Origin: an uncultured Chloroflexia bacterium
GTDB taxonomy: Bacteria > Chloroflexota > Limnocylindria > Limnocylindrales > CSP1-4
Reading direction: 5' to 3'
DNA: 64,000 nt
NCBI GenBank assembly: GCA_963768655.1
Contig: CAVYIM010000005.1
Location: 1 to 64,000 of the forward strand
The position numbers were made by a program, and so were the translations under genes. This document shows, in pieces, positions 39,792 to 54,416 of the stretch; within the stretch, counting starts at the first letter, position 1; each line of letters starts with the position of its first letter. The notes below the pieces were generated by a model that had not been told where the DNA came from, did no database searches, and worked only from the letters and a program-made list of their open reading frames with translations.

Positions 39792-39823
39792 GTGGTGGAA
39801 GGAGACTGGTCAGTATGCGAACC
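39792..39823. repeat. att-like repeat A1 (GTGGTGG-AAGGAGACTGGTCAGTATG-CGAACC; one extra A)
   Basis: Five copies in the array; 39792-39957 closely resembles 49443-49606. Confidence 0.85.
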
Positions 39824-39914: not shown

Positions 39915-41186
39915 CTAGGGCCAGTACAGCTCGGCAGATGTCAGCCCGTCACCGACAATCATGACGCGCCCATCCTCCAGTTCGGCCGCATACGTGTAGC
40001 CCGGATACTCTTCGAGCATTGGTGCGGTCTTCTTGAACGTGCCAGTCACTGGGTCGTAGAGCTCGGCGGAATTGAGCGGCGTCGGTGGATTGTCGTCACT
40101 AAAGCCCGCCGCGACCAGGACCGAGCCGTTCTTCAGCAGGCAGGCGACCTGATCGCTTCGGCCGGTAACCATCGATCCGGTCGGGCTGAACTTGCCGCTC
40201 GCCGGGTCGTAGATCTCGGCGCTGGCCAACCCTACGCTATCGGCGTTCTCGCCTCCCGCGATCAGGACCCGACCATCGGGTAGCAGGGTGGCCGTGTGAT
40301 AGGCCCGTGCGGTGGTCATCGATCCTGTCGCGCTGAATTTGCCGCTCGTCGGGTCGTAGATCTCGGCGCTGGCCAGGTACTTGAGGTTGCCGTTGTCCTC
40401 GTCTCCGCCGACGATCAGGACCCGTCCGTCGGGCAGCAGGGTCGCGCTCTGGTTCTCTCGGCCAGTGATGAGCGAGCCGGTCGAGCTGAACTTGCCGGTT
40501 GACGGGTCATACAGCTCCGCCGAGCGCAGGAACACCTCGTCATCCTCGTTGTTCGCTCCGTGCACGCCCCCAACGACTAGGACCCTGCCGTCTTTGAGGG
40601 TCGTGGCCGTGTAGGGCGCCAAGAACCACTGGCCCTCCTCGGCCGCCCTATCCCCGTCGACCATCCGCCCGGCCAGGCTGAACTTGCCGCTCGTTGGGTC
40701 GTAGATCTCGGGGGCCGAGTCGGGAGATGCCCCGGTCACGAGCACTCGGCCATCGTTGAGCGGAGTCAGGACCTCGCCGACTCCTCCGGGTAAAAGCGAT
40801 CCGGTCAGGCTGAACGTGTTGCTCTTGGGATCGTACAGCTCGACGGCGTTCGATACGGGCCCATACTGAGGATCGGTTGGCCCATCGAGGACGAGGACTC
40901 GACCATCGGGCAGCAGGGCCGCCCTGAGGCTCTGATGGGTCGCCAGAAAGGGAGCCGCGAGCGTGAACACGCCGCTCGGGGTCGTGGGCGACGGTGTGGG
41001 AGTTGGCGCCAACGTCGGGCGTAGGCTGGCCGTCGGGCTCACGGCGGGGCTGGTCCTCAAGCTCGGGCCCGGAGATGGTGTTGCTGGGCTGCCGCCGCAG
41101 CCAGCAACGGCCAGCGCGAGGGTTAGCCCGGCGAATGCCCGCGCTGTGGAGCTGCCACCCAGAACGATCCGCGGACTGGCTCTCAC
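39915..41186 (-). CDS. Kelch-repeat beta-propeller lipoprotein K1
   Basis: GTG start with AGAGGGAG RBS, lipobox VAGC, P/T/S linker, repeats of ATLLPDGRVLIxGG...SAEIYDP. Confidence 0.9.
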   Translation of the reverse strand: MRASPRIVLGGSSTARAFAGLTLALAVAGCGGSPATPSPGPSLRTSPAVSPTASLRPTLAPTPTPSPTTPSGVFTLAAPFLATHQSLRAALLPDGRVLVLDGPTDPQYGPVSNAVELYDPKSNTFSLTGSLLPGGVGEVLTPLNDGRVLVTGASPDSAPEIYDPTSGKFSLAGRMVDGDRAAEEGQWFLAPYTATTLKDGRVLVVGGVHGANNEDDEVFLRSAELYDPSTGKFSSTGSLITGRENQSATLLPDGRVLIVGGDEDNGNLKYLASAEIYDPTSGKFSATGSMTTARAYHTATLLPDGRVLIAGGENADSVGLASAEIYDPASGKFSPTGSMVTGRSDQVACLLKNGSVLVAAGFSDDNPPTPLNSAELYDPVTGTFKKTAPMLEEYPGYTYAAELEDGRVMIVGDGLTSAELYWP

Positions 41187-41222
41187 GCTCTGTCTCCCTC
41201 TGCCATCGGTACGAACCAGGAT

Positions 41223-41246
41223 GACGGATCGAGGGAGCGCGCGTGA
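41223..41246 (-). promoter_or_regulatory. Conserved ECF-type promoter TCAC-N16-CGTC (K1)
   Basis: Same motif and spacing found upstream of all nine Kelch genes. Confidence 0.65.
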
Positions 41247-41282
41247 TGTCACGGCGGGCGGCAGCGACCGAACGGGAAGGAC

Positions 41283-41313
41283 GTGGTGGAGGAGACCGGG
41301 CAGTATGCGAACC
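41283..41313. repeat. att-like repeat A2
   Basis: GTGGTGGAGGAGACCGGGCAGTATGCGAACC. Confidence 0.85.
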
Positions 41314-41492
41314 GCATCCTCGGGCTGGTCCGACTATCGCTGGACCTCTCGCGGCGCAGCGGCAAGAGTGGGCCTACGTGCTTGGCCGACTGTCGCAAGA
41401 GCGAGGCGGCCGCCATCTGACAACAGGCTGGCGACTATCCGAGTTCCCAGGGCCTCGGAGTCCGCGCCAGCGCAGAGGAAGGTCCGCGCAGT

Positions 41493-42725
41493 CTAGGGCC
41501 TGTAGAGCTCGCAAGAGGTGAAGTCACCGCCACCACCGGTAACAAGTACCTCGCCATCTGCGAGCAGGGTCGCGGTGAAAGCCTGCCGCGGTGAGTGCAT
41601 CGAGCCAGTGGCGCTAAACGTGCCCGTGGCTGGATCGAACAGCTCCGCCGTTGCCAGGCCGTCGACCGGGTTGTCGTCGTTGATGCCGCCCGCCACCAGC
41701 ACTTTCCCGTTTGGAAGCAGGGCGGCCACGTCATCGGCTCGGGCCGTCGCCATCGATCCGGTAGGCGCGAACGAGTTGGTACTGGGGTCGAAGATCTCGG
41801 CGGACAAGGAATACAGACCGGTCAGATAGCTGAAGCCACCGGCGATCAGCACGCGGCCATCCCGAAGCAAGGTTGCGGTGTCCTGCTCGCGCTCGACAGT
41901 CATGTTCCCCGTGGGGCTGAACCTGCCAGTTCGAGGATCGTAGATCTCGCCCGTCGCGACGGTGGTCGCGGTTCCGGACTGAGGATCTCCACACGGTCCC
42001 CCGCCCGTGATTAGGACTCGCCCGTCCTGCAGCACCGTGGCCGTGGCGCCAGCACGCGCGGCCTCCATAGAGCCGGTGAAAGTGAACTTGTTCGACCTAG
42101 GATCGAATAGCTCCGCGGATGCCGTCAGGCAGTGGCCCGGACGCATGTCTCCGCCCCCGGCTATCAGAACGCGCCCGTCCTGAAGCAGGGCCACGGCGGC
42201 CTCGGACCGGTCGATGAGCGGCCTCACCGCAGCGAATTTGCCCGTGGCTGGATCGTAGATCTCGGCGCCCGTGTCCGTGGCCACGTGGGGTTCGTCCGGA
42301 TCCGCGGCACCGATGACAAGGACTCTGCCATCGAGCAGCGTTACCGCTGCCGGTTGCGTCCGGTAGTGCGAAAGTGAGCCGGTCGTGGTGAACGTCCCAG
42401 TCGAGGGGTCGTAGATCTCCGCTACCACACCACTTCCCACGACAAGGACTCGACCGTCACGGAGCATCGCCGCCGCATGCTGGACGCGGGGCTCGTGCAT
42501 TGAGCCGGTGAGCGTGAAGATTCCGTGGGCAGGAGTCGGCGAGAACGTGGGCGTCGAGGGCGAAGTAGGTTCGGCGCTCATCCTAGACGTAGGGCTGGAC
42601 GCAGGGCTCGTCGTCGGGCTCGGGATCGACGAGGGCAAGGCCGGGCTGCCTCCGCAACCGGCGACCGCCAGGACGAGGACTGCGGCGCGAAGGGGCCGCC
42701 CTGGCGAGCCAAGACCCACTCTCAC
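41493..42725 (-). CDS. Kelch-repeat lipoprotein K2 (paralogue of K9)
   Basis: Lipobox VAGC and Kelch repeats; 5' region identical to K9; GTG start chosen by RBS and promoter position. Confidence 0.9.
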   Translation of the reverse strand: MRVGLGSPGRPLRAAVLVLAVAGCGGSPALPSSIPSPTTSPASSPTSRMSAEPTSPSTPTFSPTPAHGIFTLTGSMHEPRVQHAAAMLRDGRVLVVGSGVVAEIYDPSTGTFTTTGSLSHYRTQPAAVTLLDGRVLVIGAADPDEPHVATDTGAEIYDPATGKFAAVRPLIDRSEAAVALLQDGRVLIAGGGDMRPGHCLTASAELFDPRSNKFTFTGSMEAARAGATATVLQDGRVLITGGGPCGDPQSGTATTVATGEIYDPRTGRFSPTGNMTVEREQDTATLLRDGRVLIAGGFSYLTGLYSLSAEIFDPSTNSFAPTGSMATARADDVAALLPNGKVLVAGGINDDNPVDGLATAELFDPATGTFSATGSMHSPRQAFTATLLADGEVLVTGGGGDFTSCELYRP

Positions 42726-42762
42726 CCTCTGTCTCCCACTGCCTTCGGACTGAATGCAGGAT

Positions 42763-42786
42763 GACGCATCCAGGAAGGGCACGTGA
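42763..42786 (-). promoter_or_regulatory. Conserved ECF-type promoter TCAC-N16-CGTC (K2)
   Basis: Motif conserved across the array. Confidence 0.65.
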
Positions 42787-42827
42787 CGTCACTGGGTAGT
42801 GTCGACCGACGGGCCGAGGAGACGGTG

Positions 42828-42868
42828 TGGGCGAGGTCGGGGTCGAACCGACACGCCGCTTACGCGGC
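42828..42868 (-). repeat. tRNA-Leu 3'-half copy T1
   Basis: 41 nt identical to 54332-54372 (variable arm, T arm, acceptor strand). Confidence 0.95.
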
Positions 42869-42963
42869 CAGCCCGGGGATGCTCTATCCAGTCCCTCGTG
42901 GCGGGCGATGCAAAATCGGCACTGTTAGCGTGTGAGTCGAACCCCGAGGAAGCCCAACGCAGC

Positions 42964-43093
42964 CTAGGCCGGTACAGCTCCGCCGAGGTGAGAACGATGC
43001 CGTCGAGGGCCTCGCGTCCAGGGATGAGAACCCGGCCGTCGGCGATCAGCGTGGCGGTCTGGTAGGCGCGCATGTCCTCATCGAGCCTGTCGG
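42964..43093 (-). pseudogene. Orphan C-terminal Kelch blade remnant
   Basis: RAYQTATLIADGRVLIPG...SAELYRP with indels; no start or promoter. Confidence 0.75.
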
Positions 43094-43109
43094 GTTCAAG
43101 CACCGCCCG

Positions 43110-44379
43110 TCAAGGTTTGAACAGCTCGGCGGAAGAGAAGGCTTCCTGACCGTCGCCTATGCCTCCCGCGATCAAAACGGTGCCGTCGGGCAGCAGGGTA
43201 GCCGTCTGATCGCTCCGGGCCTCGATCATCGAGCCGATCATGTGAAAGCCGGTTGCTGGGTCATATAGACCGGCCGAGTTCGCAGCACCGAGCCCGGTGC
43301 TTTCTGGAGAATTGAGGTTGCCACCCTCGAAGAGTACGCGGCCATCGGCGAGAAGAGTGGCGGTGGGACCGGACCATTGGTATGGTGTGGAGATCGATCC
43401 GGACATCGTGACCGAATTCTGTCGCGGGATCGTACGTGACCAGGTAGTCGTCGACACACAAGAGAACGCGACCGTCCTTGAGCACGGTGGCCGTGTCGGG
43501 CACTCCGTCGGCGGTCGGGATCACGGGCGGGAGCGAGAGTGAGATCGAGGTGGACTTGGCGCTGGCGGTGTCGTACAACTCCGCGTCAGGACCGCCGATC
43601 GTTCCGCCGATCACCAGGACTTTGCCATTGGGCAGGAGAGTCGCAGTGGCGCTGTCGTAGAAGTTCAGTAGCGAGCCATCGAGCGTGAACTTGCCGGTCG
43701 CCGGGTCGTACATCTCAGCTCGGGTTTCACCGCCATTGAGCATCAGGACGCGCCCGTCGGGCAGGAGAATCGCGCTGGCATCGGCGCGACCAACGGACAT
43801 CGATCCCGTGGGGGAGAACTTGCCCGTCGCCGGGTCGTACAGCTCGGCCGACGCAAGCGGGTCTGTTCCCGCCGTCACAGGACCGGGGGTGCACCCGCTC
43901 TTCCCAAGGCAGCCATAGCCACCGGCGATCAGGACGCGACCATCCGCCAGCAGCGTGGCAGTGGCATGGGAGCGAGCTGTCCTCATAGAGCCCGTGGGGG
44001 TGAACTGGCCGGTGCTCGGGTCGTACAGCTCTGCGGACGAGACGACCTCGTCAAACGACGCGGTCTGCACGTCGCCTCCTCCGGCGATGAGGACCTTGCC
44101 GTCCCGGAGCAGTGTGGCGGTGGCATCCATACGTGCGTCGTGCATTCTGCCGGTGGCGACGAACGTCGGAGTCGGTGTGGGAGTGGGGTTCGGGGTCGGC
44201 ATGGGCTTCCGGATCGGCGTGGCCGTGGGCGTCGAAGTGGAGCTGGTAGTCGGACTCAGGCTCGGCGAGGGCGAGGCCGGGCTTCCGCCGCACCCGGCGA
44301 CGGCCAGCACGAGAGCCACCGCGGCGAATGCCCGCCCTGTCGAGCCGCGGACCCTGTCGAGCCCCGGACTGGCCCTCAC
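43110..44379 (-). pseudogene. Kelch-repeat lipoprotein K3 with a +1 frameshift near 43415-43419
   Basis: ORFs 43261..44379 and 43110..43457 together align with K4; one extra base at ACAGAATTCG versus ACAGGCTCG in K4. Confidence 0.85.
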
Positions 44380-44416
44380 GCTCTGCCTCCCTCTGTCATC
44401 GAAACCACTGCAGGAT

Positions 44417-44440
44417 GACGCATCGGGGAAGCGCGCGTGA
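44417..44440 (-). promoter_or_regulatory. Conserved ECF-type promoter TCAC-N16-CGTC (K3)
   Basis: Motif conserved across the array. Confidence 0.65.
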
Positions 44441-44580
44441 TGCCACAGGATGGTGGCGTTGGCGGAGAGCGAAACGAGAATCGGCGGAGCTACCCCAGGC
44501 GATATGGTCTATGCGCGACGGCCTGGCGCTCCCTCAGGACTGGCACCATCTCGGTTCACGCTCAGTTCGGAGAGACGGTG

Positions 44581-44621
44581 TGGGCGAGGTCGGGGTCGAA
44601 CCGACACGCCGCTTACGCGGC
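44581..44621 (-). repeat. tRNA-Leu 3'-half copy T2
   Basis: Identical to 54332-54372. Confidence 0.95.
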
Positions 44622-44716
44622 CAGCCCGGGGATGCTCTATCCGGCCCCTCGTGGCGGGCGATGCAGAATCGGCCCTGTTAGCGTGTGAGTCGAACCCCGA
44701 GTAAGCCCAACGCAGC

Positions 44717-44847
44717 CTAAGGCCAGTACAGCTCCGCCGAGGCGAGAACGATACCGTCGAGGGCCTCGCCTCCAGAGATGAGAACCGGCCCATCGGCCAG
44801 CAGCGTGGCGGTCCGGTAGGCGCGCGGCCGGTCATCGAACCTGTCGG
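44717..44847 (-). pseudogene. Orphan C-terminal Kelch blade remnant
   Basis: RAYRTATLLADGPVLISGGEALDGIVLASAELYWP-stop, frameshifted at its 5' end. Confidence 0.75.
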
Positions 44848-44865
44848 TTTCAGGCGCCCCGCCCA

Positions 44866-46116
44866 TCAGGGTTTGAACAGTTCGGCAGACGAGAAGGCTT
44901 CCTGACCGTCGCCTATGCCTCCCGCGATCAAGACGGTGCCGTCAGGCAGCAGGGTTGCCGTCTGATCGCTCCGGGCCTCGATCATCGAGCCGATCATGTG
45001 AAAGCCATTGGCCGGGTCGTACACTCCGGCCAACCGGACGGCGGCTCCAGAGAGGTCGCGACCTCCCTCGAAGAGGACGCGCCCATCGGGGAGAGGTGTG
45101 GCGGTGGAAGCGGACCACGCGAGCGGGGGGGAGATCGACCCGGACATTGTGACCGAGCCTGTCGCCGGATCGAACGTGACCAGGTAGTCGTAGGCACTCA
45201 AGAGTACGCGGCCATCCTTGAGCAGCGTAGCCGTGTCGGGTGCTCCCCAGGTGGTCGGGATCACGGACGGGAGCGCGAATGAGATCGAGGTGGACTTGGC
45301 GCTGGCCGGATCGAACAGATCCGCTCTTGGGACGCTGTCATCGGCGATGACCAGGACCTGGCCATTGGGCAGGAGAGTCGCCGTGGCGCTGTCGTAGAAG
45401 TTCAGTAGCGAGCCATCGAGCGTGAACTTGCCGGTCGCCGGGTCGTACATCTCAGTTCGTCTGTCACCGCCATTGAGCATCAGGACGCGCCCGTCGGGCA
45501 GGAGAATCGCGCTGGCATCGGCGCGACCAACGGACATCGATCCCGTGGGGGAGAACTTGCCCGTCGCCGGGTCGTACAGCTCGGCCGACGCAAGCGGGTC
45601 TGTTCCCGCCGTCACAGGACCGGGGGTGCACCCGCTCTTCCCAAGGCAGCCATAGCCACCGGCGATCAGGACGCGACCATCCGCCAGCAGCGTGGCAGTG
45701 GCATGGGAGCGAGCTGTCCTCATAGAGCCCGTGGGGGTGAACTGGCCGGTGCTCGGGTCGTACAGCTCTGCGGACGAGACGACCTCGTCAAACGACGCGG
45801 TCTGCACGTCGCCTCCTCCGGCGATGAGGACCTTGCCGTCCCGGAGCAGTGTGGCGGTGGCATCCATACGTGCGTCGTGCATTCTGCCGGTGGCGACGAA
45901 CGTCGGAGTCGGTGTGGGAGTGGGGTTCGGGGTCGGCATGGGCTTCCGGATCGGCGTGGCCGTGGGCGTCGAAGTGGAGCTGGTAGTCGGACTCAGGCTC
46001 GGCGAGGGCGAGGCCGGGCTTCCGCCGCACCCGGCGACGGCCAGCACGAGAGCCACCGCGGCGAATGCCCGCCCTGTCGAGCCGCGGACCCTGTCGAGCC
46101 CCGGACTGGCCCTCAC
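44866..46116 (-). CDS. Kelch-repeat lipoprotein K4
   Basis: 416 aa, lipobox VAGC, Kelch repeats. Confidence 0.92.
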   Translation of the reverse strand: MRASPGLDRVRGSTGRAFAAVALVLAVAGCGGSPASPSPSLSPTTSSTSTPTATPIRKPMPTPNPTPTPTPTFVATGRMHDARMDATATLLRDGKVLIAGGGDVQTASFDEVVSSAELYDPSTGQFTPTGSMRTARSHATATLLADGRVLIAGGYGCLGKSGCTPGPVTAGTDPLASAELYDPATGKFSPTGSMSVGRADASAILLPDGRVLMLNGGDRRTEMYDPATGKFTLDGSLLNFYDSATATLLPNGQVLVIADDSVPRADLFDPASAKSTSISFALPSVIPTTWGAPDTATLLKDGRVLLSAYDYLVTFDPATGSVTMSGSISPPLAWSASTATPLPDGRVLFEGGRDLSGAAVRLAGVYDPANGFHMIGSMIEARSDQTATLLPDGTVLIAGGIGDGQEAFSSAELFKP

Positions 46117-46153
46117 GCTCTGCCTCCCTCTGTCATCGAAACCACTGCAGGAT

Positions 46154-46177
46154 GACGCATCGGGGAAGCGCGCGTGA
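46154..46177 (-). promoter_or_regulatory. Conserved ECF-type promoter TCAC-N16-CGTC (K4)
   Basis: Motif conserved across the array. Confidence 0.65.
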
Positions 46178-46317
46178 TGCCACAGGATGGTGGCGTTGGC
46201 GGAGAGCGAAACGAGAATCGGCGGAGCTACCCCAGGCGATATGGTCTATGCGCGACGGCCTGGCGCTCCCTCAGGACTGGCACCATCTCGGTTCACGCTC
46301 AGTTCGGAGAGACGGTG

Positions 46318-46358
46318 TGGGCGAGGTCGGGGTCGAACCGACACGCCGCTTACGCGGC
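46318..46358 (-). repeat. tRNA-Leu 3'-half copy T3
   Basis: Identical to 54332-54372. Confidence 0.95.
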
Positions 46359-46453
46359 CAGCCCGGGGATGCTCTATCCGGCCCCTCGTGGCGGGCGATG
46401 CAAAATCGGCCCTGTTAGCGTGTGAGTCGAACCCCGAGTAAGCCCAACGCAGC

Positions 46454-46584
46454 CTAAGGCCAGTACAGCTCCGCCGAGGCGAGAACGATACCGTCGAGGG
46501 CCTCGCCTCCAGAGATGAGAACCGGCCCATCGGCCAGCAGCGTGGCGGTCCGGTAGGCGCGCGGCCGGTCATCGAACCTGTCGG
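46454..46584 (-). pseudogene. Orphan C-terminal Kelch blade remnant
   Basis: Copy of 44717-44847. Confidence 0.75.
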
Positions 46585-46602
46585 TTTCAGGCGCCCCGCC
46601 CA

Positions 46603-47853
46603 TCAGGGTTTGAACAGTTCGGCAGACGAGAAGGCTTCCTGACCGTCGCCTATGCCTCCCGCGATCAAGACGGTGCCGTCAGGCAGCAGGGTTGCCGTCT
46701 GATCGCTCCGGGCCTCGATCATCGAGCCGATCATGTGAAAGCCATTGGCCGGGTCGTACACTCCGGCCAACCGGACGGCGGCTCCAGAGAGGTCGCGACC
46801 TCCCTCGAAGAGGACGCGCCCATCGGGGAGAGGTGTGGCGGTGGAAGCGGACCACGCGAGCGGGGGGGAGATCGACCCGGACATTGTGACCGAGCCTGTC
46901 GCCGGATCGAACGTGACCAGGTAGTCGTAGGCACTCAAGAGTACGCGGCCATCCTTGAGCAGCGTAGCCGTGTCGGGTGCTCCCCAGGTGGTCGGGATCA
47001 CGGACGGGAGCGCGAATGAGATCGAGGTGGACTTGGCGCTGGCCGGATCGAACAGATCCGCTCTTGGGACGCTGTCATCGGCGATGACCAGGACCTGGCC
47101 ATTGGGCAGGAGAGTCGCCGTGGCGCTGTCGTAGAAGTTCAGTAGCGAGCCATCGAGCGTGAACTTGCCGGTCGCCGGGTCGTACATCTCAGTTCGTCTG
47201 TCACCGCCATTGAGCATCAGGACGCGCCCGTCGGGCAGGAGAATCGCGCTGGCATCGGCGCGACCAACGGACATCGATCCCGTGGGGGAGAACTTGCCCG
47301 TCGCCGGGTCGTACAGCTCGGCCGACGCAAGCGGGTCTGTTCCCGCCGTCACAGGACCGGGGGTGCACCCGCTCTTCCCAAGGCAGCCATAGCCACCGGC
47401 GATCAGGACGCGACCATCCGCCAGCAGCGTGGCAGTGGCATGGGAGCGAGCTGTCCTCATAGAGCCCGTGGGGGTGAACTGGCCGGTGCTCGGGTCGTAC
47501 AGCTCTGCGGACGAGACGACCTCGTCAAACGACGCGGTCTGCACGTCGCCTCCTCCGGCGATGAGGACCTTGCCGTCCCGGAGCAGTGTGGCGGTGGCAT
47601 CCATACGTGCGTCGTGCATTCTGCCGGTGGCGACGAACGTCGGAGTCGGTGTGGGAGTGGGGTTCGGGGTCGGCATGGGCTTCCGGATCGGCGTGGCCGT
47701 GGGCGTCGAAGTGGAGCTGGTAGTCGGACTCAGGCTCGGCGAGGGCGAGGCCGGGCTTCCGCCGCACCCGGCGACGGCCAGCACGAGAGCCACCGCGGCG
47801 AATGCCCGCCCTGTCGAGCCGCGGACCCTGTCGAGCCCCGGACTGGCCCTCAC
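46603..47853 (-). CDS. Kelch-repeat lipoprotein K5 (protein identical to K4)
   Basis: Translation in the ORF track is identical to K4. Confidence 0.92.
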   Translation of the reverse strand: MRASPGLDRVRGSTGRAFAAVALVLAVAGCGGSPASPSPSLSPTTSSTSTPTATPIRKPMPTPNPTPTPTPTFVATGRMHDARMDATATLLRDGKVLIAGGGDVQTASFDEVVSSAELYDPSTGQFTPTGSMRTARSHATATLLADGRVLIAGGYGCLGKSGCTPGPVTAGTDPLASAELYDPATGKFSPTGSMSVGRADASAILLPDGRVLMLNGGDRRTEMYDPATGKFTLDGSLLNFYDSATATLLPNGQVLVIADDSVPRADLFDPASAKSTSISFALPSVIPTTWGAPDTATLLKDGRVLLSAYDYLVTFDPATGSVTMSGSISPPLAWSASTATPLPDGRVLFEGGRDLSGAAVRLAGVYDPANGFHMIGSMIEARSDQTATLLPDGTVLIAGGIGDGQEAFSSAELFKP

Positions 47854-47890
47854 GCTCTGCCTCCCTCTGTCATCGAAACCACTGCAGGAT

Positions 47891-47914
47891 GACGCATCGG
47901 GGAAGCGCGCGTGA
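47891..47914 (-). promoter_or_regulatory. Conserved ECF-type promoter TCAC-N16-CGTC (K5)
   Basis: Motif conserved across the array. Confidence 0.65.
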
Positions 47915-48025
47915 TGCCACAGGATGGTGGCGTTGGCGGAGAGCGAAACGAGAATCGGCGGAGCTACCCCAGGCGATATGGTCTATGCGCGACGGCCTGG
48001 CGCTCCCTCAGGACTGGCACCATCT

Positions 48026-48082
48026 CGGTTCACGCTCAGTTCGGAGAGACGGTGTGGAGGAGACTGGTCAGTATGCGAACCG
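48026..48082. repeat. Hybrid att-like site A3 (attP-like junction)
   Basis: Left arm as in T2/T3, right arm as in the A repeats; terminal inverted repeat CGGTTC...GAACCG centred near the GTGG core. Confidence 0.8.
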
Positions 48083-48203
48083 GACGGCCGGAATAGTCCG
48101 GCGTCCGTTAGCGGTCAGCCGATCCCGCCGCTCGGCATCATCGACGGCATGAGCACGAAGAACAGTGAGCCACCCCGCAACCCGAGCTTCGACCCAAAGC
48201 CAG

Positions 48204-49373
48204 CTACGGCCAGTACAACTCTGCCGAAGGGCCGCCGTCCAGTGCTCCACCGGCGATCAGGACTCGCCCATCGGTGAGCAGGGTGGCGGTCTGGTTGAAC
48301 CGGGCAATGGTCATCGATCCTGTCGGCGTGAACGTGCCCGTGACAGGATCGTACAGCTCGGCCGACGTAAGGGCCACCGAGTCGTCGTTCGCTCCTCCAA
48401 CCACGAGAACCATGCCATCGGCGAGCAGGGTGGCGGTGAAGTACTGGCGCGCATCGTGCATCGATCCGGTCGGGCTGAACTTGCCGGCGGCAGGATCGTA
48501 CAGCTCGGCCGAGGCGAGGGTCCCGGAGTCGTCGCTGCCTCCGGCGACCAGAACCTGGCCATCGGTGAGCAAGGTGGCGGTGAAGTCTGTCCGTGGCGAG
48601 TGCATCGATCCCGTCGGGCTGAACTTGCCCGTCGCCGGGTTGTAGATCTCGGCCGACGCCCAGTACTGTCCATCCACGGCTCCCTCGCCGCCGACAACCA
48701 GGACCCGACCGTCCGCCAATCGTGTGGCCGTGAAGTCCAGGCGCCCCGTCATCATCGACCCAGTCGGGGTGAACTTGCCAGTGGCCGGGTCGTATAGGTC
48801 GGCCGTGTTGACTAGATCACCTCCTCCTACGATCAGGACGTGACCGTTCTGCAGCAAGATGGCTCTTTGTCCGCCGTGCACCATCGATCCCGCTGGGCTG
48901 AACGTGCCTGTCGCGGGATCGTATAGCTCGGCCGTGTTGTCGATGCCGCCCGCGATCAGCACTCGGCCGTCCGAGAGCAGTGTGGCCGTGTGGTAGGCCC
49001 GAGCGGTCGTCATCGATCCCGTCGCACTGAACTTGCCGGTGGCCGGGTCATACAGCTCCGCGGTGGCCACCGCACTGTTGACCATGCCCCCGGCGACGAG
49101 GACCCGGCCATTGCCCAACAGAGTCGCGGTTTCGAAGGTCCGGTTGGTGCTCATCGATCCAGTGACAATGAACGTGCCGTGGGCGGGCGTGGGTGAAGGT
49201 GCGGGAGTTGGCGCGAACGTCCGGCTCGGGCCGGCCGTCGGGCCCACGGCGGGGCTCGTCGTCGGGCTCTGGCTCGGCGAGGGCGAGGCCGGGCTGCCCA
49301 CACAGCCTGCGACGGCCCAGGCGAGGACCGCTACGGCAAGCGGCCGTCTCACCGAACGACGCCTGACTCCCAT
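48204..49373 (-). CDS. Kelch-repeat lipoprotein K6
   Basis: ATG with AGAGGGAG RBS, lipobox VAGC, seven Kelch-like repeats. Confidence 0.92.
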   Translation of the reverse strand: MGVRRRSVRRPLAVAVLAWAVAGCVGSPASPSPSQSPTTSPAVGPTAGPSRTFAPTPAPSPTPAHGTFIVTGSMSTNRTFETATLLGNGRVLVAGGMVNSAVATAELYDPATGKFSATGSMTTARAYHTATLLSDGRVLIAGGIDNTAELYDPATGTFSPAGSMVHGGQRAILLQNGHVLIVGGGDLVNTADLYDPATGKFTPTGSMMTGRLDFTATRLADGRVLVVGGEGAVDGQYWASAEIYNPATGKFSPTGSMHSPRTDFTATLLTDGQVLVAGGSDDSGTLASAELYDPAAGKFSPTGSMHDARQYFTATLLADGMVLVVGGANDDSVALTSAELYDPVTGTFTPTGSMTIARFNQTATLLTDGRVLIAGGALDGGPSAELYWP

Positions 49374-49410
49374 GCGCCGTCTCCCTCTGCCATTGGAACG
49401 AACTGAGGAT

Positions 49411-49434
49411 GACGCATCGTAGCAAAGCAGGTGC
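49411..49434 (-). promoter_or_regulatory. ECF-type promoter variant GCAC-N16-CGTC (K6)
   Basis: Same spacing and CGTCATCC -10 region as the other copies. Confidence 0.55.
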
Positions 49435-49442
49435 CGCTCAAA

Positions 49443-49473
49443 GTGGTGGAGGAGACTGGTCAGTATGCGAACC
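49443..49473. repeat. att-like repeat A4
   Basis: GTGGTGGAGGAGACTGGTCAGTATGCGAACC. Confidence 0.85.
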
Positions 49474-49567
49474 AGCCTGGGGGCTCAATCCGGCGAACGC
49501 TGGCCGTCGTGCGAGCCACTCCGGCGCCAGCTCTCGCCCGCTCGCCTGAGGTGAGAACTGGAAGATG

Positions 49568-49606
49568 GGGCCAATAGAGCTCGGCAGATGTCAGCCCGTC
49601 ACTGAC
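49568..49606 (-). pseudogene. Remnant of a K1-type C-terminus (DGLTSAELYWP)
   Basis: Matches the last codons of K1 within the A1/A4 duplicated segment. Confidence 0.7.
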
Positions 49607-49733
49607 AGCCCGACGAGCATGCGCCACCTGGGACTCCGCATCTTCCCGACTCGTGCCAGCCTCATCCATCTCGTCGACACGGTCCTACCGACTCGGATGA
49701 CAAGTCGCGCTAGCCAGGCGTCGACGCTCGGAG

Positions 49734-50858
49734 CTAGCCAGTCAGCTTGTACACCATCGCCTGCCTCGTGCCCGGTGCGTCCTGATAGTCGGTCGATCCA
49801 CCAATCACGAGGACGCGGCCGTCGGCCAGCAGGGTCTGTATCTTGGTATCGCCGCCTGCTCCTCCACCTCCGATGACGCTGAAGGACTCCGAGCTCGGGT
49901 CATACAGGAAGGCGTCAATACTGCCAATGATCAGTACTCGGCCGTCTGACACAGCCGTCGCGCTTTCGGTCCCGTCTCCTGCGGGCTGCGAAATCGATCG
50001 AAATCGACGAGTCGACGGGTCGAAGAGCTCGGCCGAACGTGGCACAAAGACGCCCAGCTGGTTCGCGGTATCAGCCCAACCGCCGACCACGAGAACCTGC
50101 CGGTTGGGCAACAAGATAGCCGTGTGATCTGATCGCGCCTCTACCAGACTCCCGGTCGCGCTAAATGTTCCCGTCGCCGTGTCGTAGATCTCAGCGGAGG
50201 CGATCCTAGCTCCGTCGGTGGACACGCCTCCAGCGATCAACACTCCGACGCCCGGGATCAGAGTGGCGGTTTGGAGCTCTCGGGCCTGGTTCATCGACCC
50301 GGTCAGAGCGAACGCGCCAGTCGCCGGATCGTACAGTTCGGCCGTCGGCGAGCCGTGCGTACCGGTCTGCCCGGAACCACCTGCGATGAGCACTCGGCCG
50401 TCTGGCAAGAGCGTGGCGGTCCCGTTCCAGTGCGGCTCATGCATCGACCCGGTGGCGGCAAATGTGCTAGACCTGGGATCGAACAGCTCGGCGGTCCCAA
50501 GCTCGTCGCCCCCGGCAATCAGCACGCGGCCGTCCGAGAGGCGAACGGCCATCGCCTCTGAACGCGCCTGAACCATCGTTCCAGTCAGGGTGAAGGTGCC
50601 CGTCTTGGGGTCGAACAACTCTGCGGTGCCCTTGCCATCGCCACCCGCCACCAGCACTCGACCGTCCTGGAGCAGAGTCGCGGTCGGCCACCATCGAGCG
50701 ACGTTCATCTGCGTATGCGTGACCGCGAGCGATGGCCCGGTCGCGCCGCAGCCTGCAAGGACCAGGATCACCGCAAGCGCCATTCCGGCAGTAAGGACGT
50801 GGCGGCTCAGAGTGACGTGGGTCCTACGATCCGTGTTTGTGCCTCCTCCCTCTGACAT
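49734..50858 (-). CDS. Kelch-repeat lipoprotein K7 (start uncertain; lacks the long P/T linker)
   Basis: Lipobox LAGC and Kelch repeats. Confidence 0.85.
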   Translation of the reverse strand: MSEGGGTNTDRRTHVTLSRHVLTAGMALAVILVLAGCGATGPSLAVTHTQMNVARWWPTATLLQDGRVLVAGGDGKGTAELFDPKTGTFTLTGTMVQARSEAMAVRLSDGRVLIAGGDELGTAELFDPRSSTFAATGSMHEPHWNGTATLLPDGRVLIAGGSGQTGTHGSPTAELYDPATGAFALTGSMNQARELQTATLIPGVGVLIAGGVSTDGARIASAEIYDTATGTFSATGSLVEARSDHTAILLPNRQVLVVGGWADTANQLGVFVPRSAELFDPSTRRFRSISQPAGDGTESATAVSDGRVLIIGSIDAFLYDPSSESFSVIGGGGAGGDTKIQTLLADGRVLVIGGSTDYQDAPGTRQAMVYKLTG

Positions 50859-50875
50859 CGGCGCGAACACAGGAT

Positions 50876-50899
50876 GACGCATCGAAGCTAGGAGCGTGA
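50876..50899 (-). promoter_or_regulatory. Conserved ECF-type promoter TCAC-N16-CGTC (K7)
   Basis: Motif conserved despite divergent flanks. Confidence 0.65.
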
Positions 50900-51122
50900 G
50901 GCTTCAGGGGGTTGGTTGGTCCTCGCCCGATAGGCGGGCGAACCGCCCGGCTGGAACGGCGGGAAACTGCCGCGCAGGATCACGGCCTACCGTACTGCGC
51001 AGTCAGGTCGCTTCCCCCCATCTATGGATATCATCAGCTCGATAAGGTCTATGCGCGACGGCCTGGCGCCCCCCCCCAGGACTGGCACCATCTCGGTTCA
51101 CGCTCAGTTCGGAGAGGCGGTG

Positions 51123-51162
51123 TGGCGAGGTCGGGGTCGAACCGACACGCCGCTTACGCGGC
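51123..51162 (-). repeat. tRNA-Leu 3'-half copy T4 (one base missing in the acceptor strand)
   Basis: 40 nt matching 54332-54372 with a 1-nt deletion. Confidence 0.92.
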
Positions 51163-51261
51163 CAGCCCGGGGATGCTCTATCCGGCCCCTCGTGCCAGGC
51201 GATGCAGAATCGGCACTGTTAGCGTGTGAGTCAAAGCCCGGTCTCCGAGGCCCAACGCAGG

Positions 51262-51392
51262 CTACGGCCAGTACAGCTCCGCCGAGGTGAGAACGATACC
51301 GTCGAGGGCCTCGCGTCCAGGGATGAGAACCCGGCCGTCGGCGATCAGCGTGGCGGTCTGGTAGGCGCGCATGTCCTCATCGAGCCTGTCGG
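51262..51392 (-). pseudogene. Orphan C-terminal Kelch blade remnant
   Basis: Near-copy of 42964-43093, ends SAELYWP-stop. Confidence 0.75.
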
Positions 51393-51408
51393 GTTCAAGC
51401 ACCGCCCG

Positions 51409-52695
51409 TCAAGGTTTGAACAGCTCGGCGGACGAGAGAATGCTTACCTGGTCCGAGGTGCCTCCCGCGATCAAGACTGTGCCGTTGGCCAGCAGTGTTG
51501 CCGTGTGATCAGCTCGCGGCTGTGGCATGGAGACTGTGTCCTGGTAGCCAGAGGCTGGGTCGTACAGGCCTGCCGCATCGGTAGTGTCTTGGGAAACAGC
51601 GGTTACGGCATAGCCCCCTGCAAAGAACACACGCCCATCCGAGAGGAGCGTTGGCGTAGTCAACCAGTCGCCAGGAGCGGCGATCGATCCCGACTGCCTG
51701 AGCGAGCCAGTCACTAGATCGTAGGTCACAAGGTTGTCGTTTATACACAGCAGAACGTGGCCATCCCTGAGCGGAATGAGCGTGTATGGAGTGGGTGGAT
51801 AGACACCGGCGTCGGGATCGAGCGAGATAGAACTCGACTTGCCAGTGGCTGGATCGAACAGTTCAGCGGCCGGGCCATCAGCAACGGTGGGGCCAACTAT
51901 CAGGACCTTCCCGTCGGGCAGCACGGCCGCCGAGGTGGCGGCTCCGATACCCACGCCACTGACGTTGGGGAATACGTCCACATAGTCGTTCTGTAGCGAA
52001 CCGTCGCGCGTGAACTTGCCAGTAGTCGGGTCATACAGCTCAACCAGTTTCGACCCGCCCAGCAGTATCAGGACCTGCCCATCGGGCAGGAGCAGGGAAT
52101 TGGCACCGGAGCGAGCGACGGCCATCAAACCGGTGCGAGTGAACTCGCCAGTCGTGGAGTCATACAGCTCGGCAGACGCGAGAGGGCCTTCGCCGTCGGC
52201 TGTGTCGAGCGCACAGCTCCTGGTGACGCAGCCATAGCCGCCGGCCATCAGGACCCGCCCGTCGGGCAGGAGGATGGCAGCGGCGTCGGAGCGACCAGTC
52301 GCCATGGAGCCTGTGGGCGTGAACTTGCCAGTGGTCGGGTCGTACAGCTCGGCCGATGCGAGGACTGGTGCGTGCAGGAAGGGAACAGAAGGCATCGCCC
52401 GGGCTCCTCCGGCGATGAGGACCTCGCCGTCCCGCAGCAGTGTGGCGGTGGCGTAGATCCGGGGGGCGCTCATGCTGCCGGTGACGACGAACGTCGGGGC
52501 TGGCGTGGGCGACGGTGTCGGCGTGGGCGTGGGACTCGGCGACAATGTGGCGCTCGGGCGGGCAGTCGGGCTGGGGCTCGGCCAGGGCGAGGCCGGGCTT
52601 CCCCCGCATCCGGCGATGGCCAGCACGAGGACCAATGCGGCGCATGCCCGGCCCGTCGAGCCGCGGACCCTATCAATCCCCGGACTGGCTCTCAC
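51409..52695 (-). CDS. Kelch-repeat lipoprotein K8 (paralogue of K3-K5)
   Basis: GTG start with AGAGGGAG RBS, lipobox IAGC, Kelch repeats, ends SAELFKP. Confidence 0.9.
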   Translation of the reverse strand: MRASPGIDRVRGSTGRACAALVLVLAIAGCGGSPASPWPSPSPTARPSATLSPSPTPTPTPSPTPAPTFVVTGSMSAPRIYATATLLRDGEVLIAGGARAMPSVPFLHAPVLASAELYDPTTGKFTPTGSMATGRSDAAAILLPDGRVLMAGGYGCVTRSCALDTADGEGPLASAELYDSTTGEFTRTGLMAVARSGANSLLLPDGQVLILLGGSKLVELYDPTTGKFTRDGSLQNDYVDVFPNVSGVGIGAATSAAVLPDGKVLIVGPTVADGPAAELFDPATGKSSSISLDPDAGVYPPTPYTLIPLRDGHVLLCINDNLVTYDLVTGSLRQSGSIAAPGDWLTTPTLLSDGRVFFAGGYAVTAVSQDTTDAAGLYDPASGYQDTVSMPQPRADHTATLLANGTVLIAGGTSDQVSILSSAELFKP

Positions 52696-52732
52696 GCTCT
52701 GCCTCCCTCTGTCATCGAAACCACTGCAGGAT

Positions 52733-52756
52733 GACGCATCGGGGAAGCGTGCGTGA
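52733..52756 (-). promoter_or_regulatory. Conserved ECF-type promoter TCAC-N16-CGTC (K8)
   Basis: Motif conserved across the array. Confidence 0.65.
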
Positions 52757-52790
52757 TGCCACAGGGCGTCGGTCGAAAGTGAAACCAGAA

Positions 52791-52821
52791 GTGGTGGAGG
52801 AGACCGGGCAGTATGCGAACC
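52791..52821. repeat. att-like repeat A5
   Basis: GTGGTGGAGGAGACCGGGCAGTATGCGAACC. Confidence 0.85.
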
Positions 52822-53002
52822 AGCCTGGGGGCTCAATCCGGCGAACGCAGGCCGTTGTGCGAGCGCCATCTGACAACCGTCTTCGTTCCGACTGCTGCAT
52901 CTGATCTACGTCGACTACATCGCCGGTAGGTTCCGAGCGCAGTGGCGTGTGGCGAACGGCTGGTCAATTCGCCGACTGTTCGCCAACGCAGAAGCCGGTA
53001 GC

Positions 53003-54229
53003 CTACGGCCGGTAGAGCTCGCAGACGGCACTGTCGATTGCTCCGCCGGCCACGAGTACGTCGCCATCTGAAAGCAAGGTTGCTGTGAAGAACGACCGGG
53101 GCCAGTGCATAGATCCGGTGGCGGAGAACGTGCCAGTGGTCGGATCGAACAGCTCAGCGCTTGCTACGCCGTCTTCCTGGTTGTCGGCATTGTTGCCTCC
53201 AGCCACCAGCACCTTCCCGTCCGGAAGCAGGACGGCCACGTCGTCGGATCGGGCCGTTCCCATCGATCCAGTCGGTACGAATCGGTTGGTGCTGGGGTCG
53301 AAGAGCTCGGCGGACGAGTAATACTGGCCACTCAGGTAACTGAAGCCGCCGGCGATCAGCACGCGGCCGTCCGGAAGGAGCGTTGCTGTGTCTTCCTCGC
53401 GTTCGACACTCATGTTGCCTGCGGGACTGAACGTGCCGGTTCGAGGGTCGTAGATCTCCGCCGTGGCATAAGTAGTGGCCGTCCCGGATTGCGGATCTCC
53501 GCACGATCCTCCACCGGCGACAAGAACTCGGCCGTCGCTGAGTGCAGTGGCGGTGGCCCCCGCGCGCGCAGCCCTCATCGAGCCTGTCATCGTGAACTTG
53601 CCAGACGTAGGGTCGTACAGCTCTGCAGACGCCACGCAATCCTCTGAGCGAGAGCGGACATCCGCGCCACCAGCTACGAGGACGCGTCCGTCCTGCAGCA
53701 GGGCCACCGCCGGACCAGAGCGGTCCACCAGCGGTCTAGCCGGGATGAACTTGCCCGTGGCCGGATCGTAGAGCTCGGCGCCAGTGTCCTTGGCGTCGAC
53801 GTTGTCCGCAGCGCCCACGACTAGGACTCGGCCATCGAGCAGGGTTACTGCCGAGGGCTCCGTGCGGTCGTGCGAAAGTGAGCCGGTCGTGGTGAACGTC
53901 CCGGTCGAGGGGTCGTAGATCTCGGCGACCACGCCGCTCGCCACGAGAAGTACCCGCCCGTCACGGAGCATCGCCGCTGCGTGCTGCGCGCGGAGATCAC
54001 GCATCGAGCCGGTGAGCGTGAAGGTTCCGCGGGCAGGAGTCGGCGAGAACGTGGGCGTCGAGGGCGAAGTAGGTTCGGCGCTCATCCTAGACGTAGGGCT
54101 GGACGCAGGGCTCGTCGTCGGGCTCGGGATCGACGAGGGCAAGGCCGGGCTGCCTCCGCAACCGGCGACCGCCAGGACGAGGACTGCGGCGCGAAGGGGC
54201 CGCCCTGGCGAGCCAAGACCCACTCTCAC
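53003..54229 (-). CDS. Kelch-repeat lipoprotein K9
   Basis: Lipobox VAGC and Kelch repeats; first gene downstream of the tRNA. Confidence 0.9.
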   Translation of the reverse strand: MRVGLGSPGRPLRAAVLVLAVAGCGGSPALPSSIPSPTTSPASSPTSRMSAEPTSPSTPTFSPTPARGTFTLTGSMRDLRAQHAAAMLRDGRVLLVASGVVAEIYDPSTGTFTTTGSLSHDRTEPSAVTLLDGRVLVVGAADNVDAKDTGAELYDPATGKFIPARPLVDRSGPAVALLQDGRVLVAGGADVRSRSEDCVASAELYDPTSGKFTMTGSMRAARAGATATALSDGRVLVAGGGSCGDPQSGTATTYATAEIYDPRTGTFSPAGNMSVEREEDTATLLPDGRVLIAGGFSYLSGQYYSSAELFDPSTNRFVPTGSMGTARSDDVAVLLPDGKVLVAGGNNADNQEDGVASAELFDPTTGTFSATGSMHWPRSFFTATLLSDGDVLVAGGAIDSAVCELYRP

Positions 54230-54266
54230 CCTCTGTCTCCCACTGCCTTCGGACTGAATGCAGGAT

Positions 54267-54290
54267 GACGCATCCAGGAAGGGCACGTGA
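54267..54290 (-). promoter_or_regulatory. Conserved ECF-type promoter TCAC-N16-CGTC (K9)
   Basis: Motif conserved across the array. Confidence 0.65.
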
Positions 54291-54331
54291 CGTCACTGGG
54301 TAGTGTCGACCGACGGGCCGAGGAGACGGTG

Positions 54332-54416
54332 TGGGCGAGGTCGGGGTCGAACCGACACGCCGCTTACGCGGCACCAGCTCCTAAGGCTGGCGCGTCTGCC
54401 ATTCCGCCACTCGCCC
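54332..54416 (-). tRNA. tRNA-Leu(TAG), CCA not encoded
   Basis: GGGCGAG/CTCGCCC acceptor stem, GCGGAATGGCAGACGC D arm, CCAGC-CTTAGGA-GCTGG anticodon arm, long variable arm GCCGC-GTAA-GCGGC, GTCGG-TTCGACC-CCGAC T arm. Confidence 0.97.

Follow-up and report, generated by a model that had tools for sequence, protein, structure and literature searches.

Large serine integrases (LSIs) are the main tools for the insertion of large DNA, their use being restricted because a landing site has to be put in place beforehand. The SSV1-type integrases are archaeal tyrosine recombinases, the gene of which is split by attP near its N-terminal part. The closest precedent found for the sites described here is provided by the ssrA islands of Dehalococcoides, in which, according to the description by McMurdie et al. 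(2011, PMC3146451), the 540-aa serine recombinase DsiB adjoins attL and the att repeat resides inside its gene. The same description presents these islands as tandem, with 15 of them being without the integration module, which combines DsiB with DsiA, ParB, Mom, and other genes. In the model described for LI integrase (PMC3783163), the distal motif occupies base pairs 16-24 in attP and base pairs 11-19 in attB. Serine integrases mostly target protein genes, as described in PMC5704250, PMC2440964, PMC12884075, and the tycheposon preprint, and 27 of the 937 elements described in that preprint carry a large serine recombinase (LSR). The main text of Durrant et al., the supplements of which may list tRNA targets, contains 0 occurrences of the word 'tRNA', and the literature surveyed, with subscription journals and supplements outside its scope, holds no description of an LSI reading the tRNA T-loop or of a tail exon across attP.

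The DNA analysed here (the window) is a stretch of 64,000 nucleotides from an uncultured Chloroflexia bacterium, in which a 14.5-kb array of Kelch-repeat genes lies between tRNA-Leu and a convergent PGA_cap gene, with trigger factor and clpX farther out. Two kinds of short sequence punctuate the array (Table 1): a 24-nt element, termed A, and copies of the 3' end of tRNA-Leu, termed T. The A element is exact at 39800, 48058, and 49450, and two-base variants of it end at 41313 and 52821; all five copies have one orientation, and each is followed by a conserved remnant of an integrase tail. These five arms and four attB-like copies fall within 14.5 kb from which the integrase is absent. A motif of ~75 nt with the near-palindrome GATGCGTCATCC (family D18; for example at 47853-47927, 49373-49447, and 54229-54303) is found just upstream of the ribosome-binding site of eight Kelch genes, and it may serve as a shared operator or promoter element.

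Table 1. Positions of the attachment-site relics, tRNA-derived sequences, and cargo genes in the window; functional names are assignments from sequence.
Feature	Position	Strand	Remark
P half-site, probable outermost attR-like relic	39800..39823	-	1-nt insertion beside core; convergent PGA_cap gene next
P half-site relic, variant inner bases, with putative tail-exon relic	41290..41313	-	
Probable B' arm of A3, tRNA-Leu-type attB trailer	47974..48055	-	"U2d", distal upstream region of next Kelch gene
Putative central dinucleotide of A3	48056..48057	-	CC on tRNA strand, GG on +; centre of 24+2+24 architecture
Probable P half-site of A3, 24 nt	48058..48081	-	the "A arm" of the sequence-only reading; outer 13 nt are the conserved arm
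Putative relic of integrase C-terminal tail exon at A3	48057..48152	+	outward from core through P arm; 30 codons open past split codon
P half-site relic with putative tail-exon relic	49450..49473	-	
P half-site relic, variant inner bases, with putative tail-exon relic	52798..52821	-	
Genuine tRNA-Leu(UAG)	54332..54416	-	ARAGORN; Rfam tRNA 55.6 bits; T-loop-to-acceptor part is the putative B half-site
T1, attB-like copy	42819..42868	-	3' 38 nt of tRNA-Leu + core + 12 nt trailer; then U1/A' gene as at real tRNA
T2, attB-like copy	44572..44621	-	100% identical to 54323-54372
T3, attB-like copy	46309..46358	-	100% identical to 54323-54372
T4, attB-like copy	51114..51162	-	96%, one base absent at core
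Three tandem units, 1753, 1737, and 1737 bp	42819..48057	-	each with tRNA fragment + Kelch gene + trailer; A3 is the array end
Ten Kelch-repeat protein genes, head-to-tail, likely cargo	39915..54286	-	ORFs; Pfam Kelch_1/4/6 in 6/6 tested

The A element at 48058 belongs to the site A3, which is probably a fossil attR composed of the 24-bp P half-site of an LSI element, a central CC, and a tRNA-Leu(UAG)-type trailer (B'). A left arm ending in ...GGAGAGACGGTGTGG occurs unchanged at 44569, 46306, and 48043 and with 1 mismatch at 51111. At 44584 and 46321 (T2 and T3), it continues into the 38-nt 3' part of tRNA-Leu(UAG), and at 51125 (T4) into a copy minus one base, whereas at 48058 the same left arm is joined instead to a different arm, the 24-nt A element. 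A sequence-only reading of this DNA had proposed that the arms switch at a GTGG core, the left arm being joined to the tRNA arm at T2 and T3 and, slightly altered, at T4. Both proposals agree with the present alignments, in which one left arm joins both arm types, and the reading's distances between GTGG and CGAACC, 13 nt for the tRNA type of arm and 18 nt for the A type, were confirmed by count. A3 is like the other A sites as far as CCAC and like the T sites from CCAC on, and the meeting of this two-sided agreement at CCAC narrows the exchange point, which would lie within the CCAC at 48054-48057 (GTGG on the + strand). The 12-mer core in this context is found at six sites in the 3.37-Mb genome, all of which reside within this locus, and a search for the 15-mer with at most 3 mismatches gave 12 matches compared with 4.15 expected, a count that 0 of 100 shuffles reached. 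The trailer that forms the left side of A3 also occurs after the tRNA fragments at T2 and T3 (100%) and at T4 (93%), and in the congener G004 it is located directly 3' of a complete tRNA-Leu, with 91% identity. The A3 junction is spanned with 0 differences by a public metagenome contig (run X2, record 12, covering 47966-48116), which may derive from the source sample.

The identity of the other arm of A3 emerges from related genomes, as the A element is kept in further species of this genus, where its surroundings are unrelated. A genus-wide scan with the outer 13-mer returned 27 exact matches in 16 of 51 genomes, compared with 1 for the reversed control, and these matches consist of 10 P' arms, 14 P arms (five of them in this window), and 3 unrelated sequences. 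The P' arms are inverted copies situated 7 nt past the CCA end of a tRNA gene, and the tRNAs targeted are Leu-tag (two), Ile-tat (two), Ala-ggc (two), Val-cac (three), and one unnamed tRNA 3' end. At seven of the 10 P' arms, an LSR gene (E<=1e-20) is the neighbour, and two more retain its last codons alone; the expectation of the sequence-only reading that a serine recombinase is tied to such arms in this lineage is thereby borne out. The 509-aa integrase of G001 contains Resolvase, Recombinase, and Zn_ribbon_recom domains, and a truncated integrase copy in G024 contains the Recombinase and zinc-ribbon domains. Four elements have P' and P inverted on one contig, 5.6 to 12.6 kb apart, and empty sites exist in G001, G061, and G060, where tRNA-Leu(tag) is followed directly by the gene found past the 7.5-kb element of G024. 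Across the phylum, homologues at E<=1e-40 are present in 16 of 401 genomes, and the 3' end of the integrase gene meets an antisense tRNA at 15 of 18 homologue loci and a tRNA-like fragment at two more; the sources of the close homologues are named 'Candidatus Limnocylindrales'. On this evidence, the A arm is identified as the P half-site of an LSI family whose elements are inserted at the 3' ends of tRNA genes, and the A elements are called P arms hereafter. For integrases in the phage collection, identity to this family does not exceed 34%, over 70% of the protein. To our knowledge, the known phage LSIs target protein-coding or intergenic sites.

Two of the loci in related genomes have further contents. 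The G024 element at tRNA-Leu (L036, G024:C10, 12000-19500) encodes, along with its truncated integrase, an RHS-repeat gene, a Mutator-family transposase, and an IS3-type transposase, and a truncated Kelch gene stands beside its P arm. At L079 (G017:C4), the tRNA-Leu trailer holds a tandem repeat with a ~21-nt unit in at least 5 copies.

The P and P' arms each extend 24 nt from the central dinucleotide and have an identical outer 13-mer, and when joined they give a 50-bp site. The T-loop motif GGTTCG ends 19 nt from the centre in all nine complete attL sites of the congeners (the tenth ends at a contig edge), whereas the same distal motif lies at 24 nt in all 24 P and P' arms, a difference that equals the 5-bp shift described for LSIs (PMC3783163). 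The attB/attP offset and the supply of the distal motif by the T-loop, both of which the sequence-only reading had put forward from this window, are thus found again in the congeners. The Leu, Ala, and Val targets have CC as the central dinucleotide, and the tRNA-Ile attL sites and three CT-class P arms have CT; this pairing with the matching tRNAs is expected if partner sites must match. An intact 24+CC+24 site, which belongs to a sister arm type and not to the exact type of the window, is present at G005:C72:6246-6295 (L046, L102), where 11 of 13 outer positions match as an inverted repeat and the site sits within a contiguous 548-aa integrase ORF. The contig concerned is 16.9 kb long, without a tRNA and without terminal overlap, and could be an unintegrated element. 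No common distal motif was found in the B' arms that flank the 14 P sites, so that only one attB half-site fits the LSI model.

The A arm itself resembles the 3' end of a tRNA; of 51 tRNAs compared, tRNA-Met on C7 matches it best (T-stem and CCA end; the gene is at C7:19050). This resemblance is read as likely mimicry of the target by a half-site, not as RNA. As a candidate RNA gene, the A element was rejected: over 36000-60000, Rfam gave nothing at E<=1 but the real tRNA, and ARAGORN gave one tRNA; ARAGORN found no tmRNA in the window. A role as a Kelch promoter or terminator was likewise rejected, the element being located between convergent genes in G024 and upstream of unrelated genes in G005.

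The reading frame of the integrase crosses the P' arm and, when integrated, extends into the antisense strand of the tRNA, and a T-loop-antisense signature, G-x-E-P, is found within the last 32 residues of 91 of 120 database homologues. When the integrase frame is carried on from the core through the 14 P arms (an extra short row comes from a locus cut short), a conserved peptide is obtained that reaches a stop after 21-53 codons, and this tail peptide is retained even at A3 and 41301, where the DNA has diverged. Beyond the arm, the mean pairwise amino acid identity is 0.36 in the integrase frame versus 0.20 and 0.24, with six of the 14 tails stopping within the 20 codons scored, and this frame test is modestly in favour of coding conservation. 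An ORF on the + strand that starts from an ATG inside the arm was rejected as the conserved product, because it varies from 7 to 157 aa and is not conserved, the integrase frame being the conserved one. Hairpin-like sequence beside A3, considered as a terminator, belongs to the tail exon.

Within the window, the four other P arms join four different trailers, one of them similar to the trailer of tRNA-Leu in G005, all at one same nucleotide; these four sites are assigned as attR-like. The flanks of the P arms labelled 'X' were also considered as P' arms of integron-like cassettes and found unsupported, the flank at 41288 matching the outer 13-mer of P' at 4 of 13 positions by eye. T1-T4 have one common non-tRNA flank on their other side (88-99.6% over ~280 nt), and they are thus copies of one ancestral fragment and not four independent events. 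Both the T sites and the real tRNA appear to consist of B, core, and B', and are accordingly described as attB-like. The sequence-only reading had labelled the T sites and the other A sites as attL/attR hybrids, which stands for the A sites, as attR-like, and falls for the T sites. Within the segments compared, tandem units 2 and 3 have 99.6-100% identity. Next to the outermost P arm (39800) comes the convergent gene, as at the empty sites of relatives, from which it seems that the Kelch array as a whole is inserted DNA.

Several observations accompany these sites. In the tRNA-Leu of the window, CAC follows the discriminator (54329-54334) and CCA is not encoded, whereas the congeners G024, G004, and G005 encode CCA, and CCA also terminates each of the 12 tRNA 3' ends that score best in this genome. 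The CAC variant is common to all attB-like copies in the window, and CCA is kept at four of the five P junctions. A tandem unit of the same type exists in G004, where the contig ends at a second fragment, possibly the sign of another array.

The cognate integrase has 0 matches at 1e-20 in this genome (G000), the best tblastn match being 27% identical on contig C7, and the genome has no P' arm of this arm type, its five copies of the 13-mer all having one orientation. With neither a P' arm nor a cognate integrase, the five P arms of the window are regarded as fossils, that is, inert relics, and a candidate enzyme must come from a relative. The window contains no serine or tyrosine recombinase gene. 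Elsewhere in the genome, C3:602959-603370 holds a decayed fragment from the C-terminal part of a related serine integrase together with a sister-type P' arm that abuts tRNA-Ala(cgc), and is, judged from these features, a second fossil attL-type site. At C7:36-40 kb and 69-73 kb, a large serine recombinase is in each case paired with a tyrosine recombinase ~2 kb away, and these two loci may represent the duplication of a mobile element that has no relation to the arms described here.

Other explanations of A3 and its neighbours have to be weighed against a fossil attR. The sequence-only reading had taken A3 itself for an attP-like site, which would mean two P-type arms, with the T sites and the other A sites derived from it, and had pointed to terminal inverted repeats, CGGTTC...GAACCG, flanking the 57-bp site. 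The 6-bp repeat is indeed present, but some comparable repeat (any 6-bp inverted repeat with a span of 40-70 and a centre within 4 bp of the sampled point) occurs at 1086 of 9115 sampled points of the window (12%), which is chance level for the one at A3. Its centre at 48054 is 2.5 bp away from the centre defined by the half-sites (GG at 48056-48057), and when the 24 nt left of the A3 centre are compared with the reverse complement of those on the right, 5 of 24 positions agree, so that the repeat is uninformative. The family's true P' carries the 13-mer in inverted form, which is absent from the window, and since the left arm is instead the trailer of tRNA-Leu, as it stands in G004, A3 combines P with B' and is attR-like, which leaves an attP at this position scarcely credible. 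A3 might alternatively be the mere outer junction of a three-unit tandem duplication that arose by unequal or microhomology recombination with no site-specific recombinase involved. A3 is the exact right end of the 1753/1737/1737-bp array, in which units 2 and 3 are near-identical, a core repeat of 12-15 nt flanks the tandem unit, and the integrase is absent from the genome today. This explanation nevertheless seems improbable, as the other arm of A3 is identical to the P half-site at the borders of integrase-bearing elements in congeners, complete with the conserved tail exon, as the four other P arms of the window meet four different sequences at the same nucleotide, and as the identity between partners at the A3 junction is confined to CCAC.

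A fossil status of the sites would be mistaken if the P arms and attB-like T sites were still used by an unrelated serine recombinase (C7, C9, C4, or C6) that shuffles, deletes, or amplifies Kelch cassettes, and this is very unlikely. Across the whole genome, six loci match Resolvase and four match Recombinase, the P arms are perfect in three of five copies, and the Kelch array is mosaic; however, the resident recombinases are at most 27% identical to the arm-linked family, and none is located in the same contig region. Two public runs contained no alternative joints with sides of at least 30 nt, which is a weak test given low-depth contigs and runs that covered 0.18 and 0.07 of the words, and LSIs normally do not recombine attR with attB, as described in PMC3783163. 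For the order of the insertions and the origin of the first tRNA fragment, displacement by a tyrosine integrase, a microhomology duplication, and a homologous 'reset' between tRNA and fragment were considered as possible models. When the T fragments are set against a tyrosine-integrase tRNA island, tRNA 3' fragments are present, but all four have one common non-tRNA flank, as copies of one event; the tyrosine integrase profile has 10 matches in the genome and none in the window, the nearest being at C5:270 kb.

With A3 taken as a fossil attR, a mechanism can be proposed in which the sequence architecture, the association with integrase genes, the empty sites, and the coding conservation of the tail are the observed parts, and in which we infer binding, the position of cleavage within CCAC, and the order of events. 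By analogy with the LSI paradigm, integrase dimers would bind the 50-bp attP as two inverted 24-bp half-sites around the central dinucleotide, and would also bind attB, the left half of which would be the last 19 bp of the tRNA gene before positions 71-72. In attB, the tRNA T-loop would provide the distal motif GGTTCG, which would lie 5 bp farther out in attP. Exchange at the central dinucleotide would leave the tRNA intact, with the sequence up to position 72 coming from the host and the discriminator and CCA coming from P'. Because attP lies within the integrase ORF, the last 20-50 codons would be left at the element's far (P) end, and read-through of the tRNA antisense strand would replace these lost tail codons once the element is integrated. 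The sites in the window would then be P-type junctions left from past insertions downstream of tRNA-Leu and interleaved with Kelch genes, the T sites would be duplicated attB-like copies of the tRNA 3' end, and the three 1.7-kb tandem units beside A3 would have a separate origin in unequal crossing-over.

A broader reading, which is offered tentatively as one possibility, would join these features into a large clade of serine integrases that dock the zinc ribbon on the universal tRNA T-loop, in which the gene is split by attP, the swap of the tail acts as a directionality switch, and the loss of integrase ends gives rise to cargo arrays. Relatives that are 69-76% identical would hop among tRNA-Leu, Ile, Ala, and Val through changes in the inner bases and the central dinucleotide only, and integration would exchange the conserved tail at the C terminus for a tRNA-antisense peptide. 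Integrase-less arrays such as the Kelch array would be produced by repeated insertion and subsequent loss of the integrase end.

The interest of the family lies in the docking geometry at the T-loop and in the split integrase ORF. An attB half set by the invariant T-loop, together with close relatives that appear to have been retargeted, would make this a readable case of how specificity is divided between inner and outer bases, and the family offers candidate enzymes with ready-made targets in many genomes. An attP that splits the integrase ORF suggests a control of directionality that does not rely solely on a separate factor. For annotation, the 24-nt arm with a tail-exon relic would mark the ends of old integrase-less islands, and this interpretation of arms and relics would explain the short tRNA-like pieces that punctuate a paralogous gene array in this Chloroflexota lineage.

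Among known systems, the SSV1-type integrases are similar in that the attachment site resides within the integrase ORF and integration alters the encoded protein; unlike them, the enzyme here is a serine integrase that would lose its last 20-50 residues only and gain a tRNA-antisense tail. The tRNA islands of tyrosine integrases (Islander/TIGER), as described in PMC4383910, share the use of the 3' part of a tRNA gene, the regeneration of the tRNA, end repeats derived from the tRNA, and tandem accretion. They differ in the enzyme family, in an identity block of tens of bases compared with a few bases here, and in the far end, which there is a displaced tRNA fragment and here a P half-site. The integrases LI (A118-type), Bxb1, and phiC31, as described by Rutherford et al. 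(2013, PMC3783163), resemble the present family in the three-domain integrase, the 50-bp attP with inverted halves, the matching central dinucleotide, and the distal zinc-ribbon motif lying 5 bp nearer the centre in attB, in keeping with the half-sites of 24 and 19 nt here. In contrast to these enzymes, the motif here is the universal tRNA T-loop, it is present in one attB half-site only, and the integrase ORF crosses attP.

The DsiB islands of Dehalococcoides, likened here by their published description, belong to the same phylum and share a serine integrase of ~510-540 aa beside attL with the att repeat embedded in its gene, as well as the targeting of the 3' tRNA-like end of an RNA gene. 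In both systems, tandem insertions are located downstream of the target with repeated att copies between them, and the integration module can be absent, as in 15 islands there and at all five sites here. The target of DsiB is, by that description, the tmRNA gene (ssrA) with a 20-bp direct repeat, whereas tRNA genes with a core of 4-12 nt are used here; and the description of DsiB puts the insertion in the T-loop, whereas the centre of symmetry and A3 would put the exchange here at acceptor positions 71-72. The explicit 24/19 geometry and the conserved tail exon further distinguish the present family from the DsiB islands as described.
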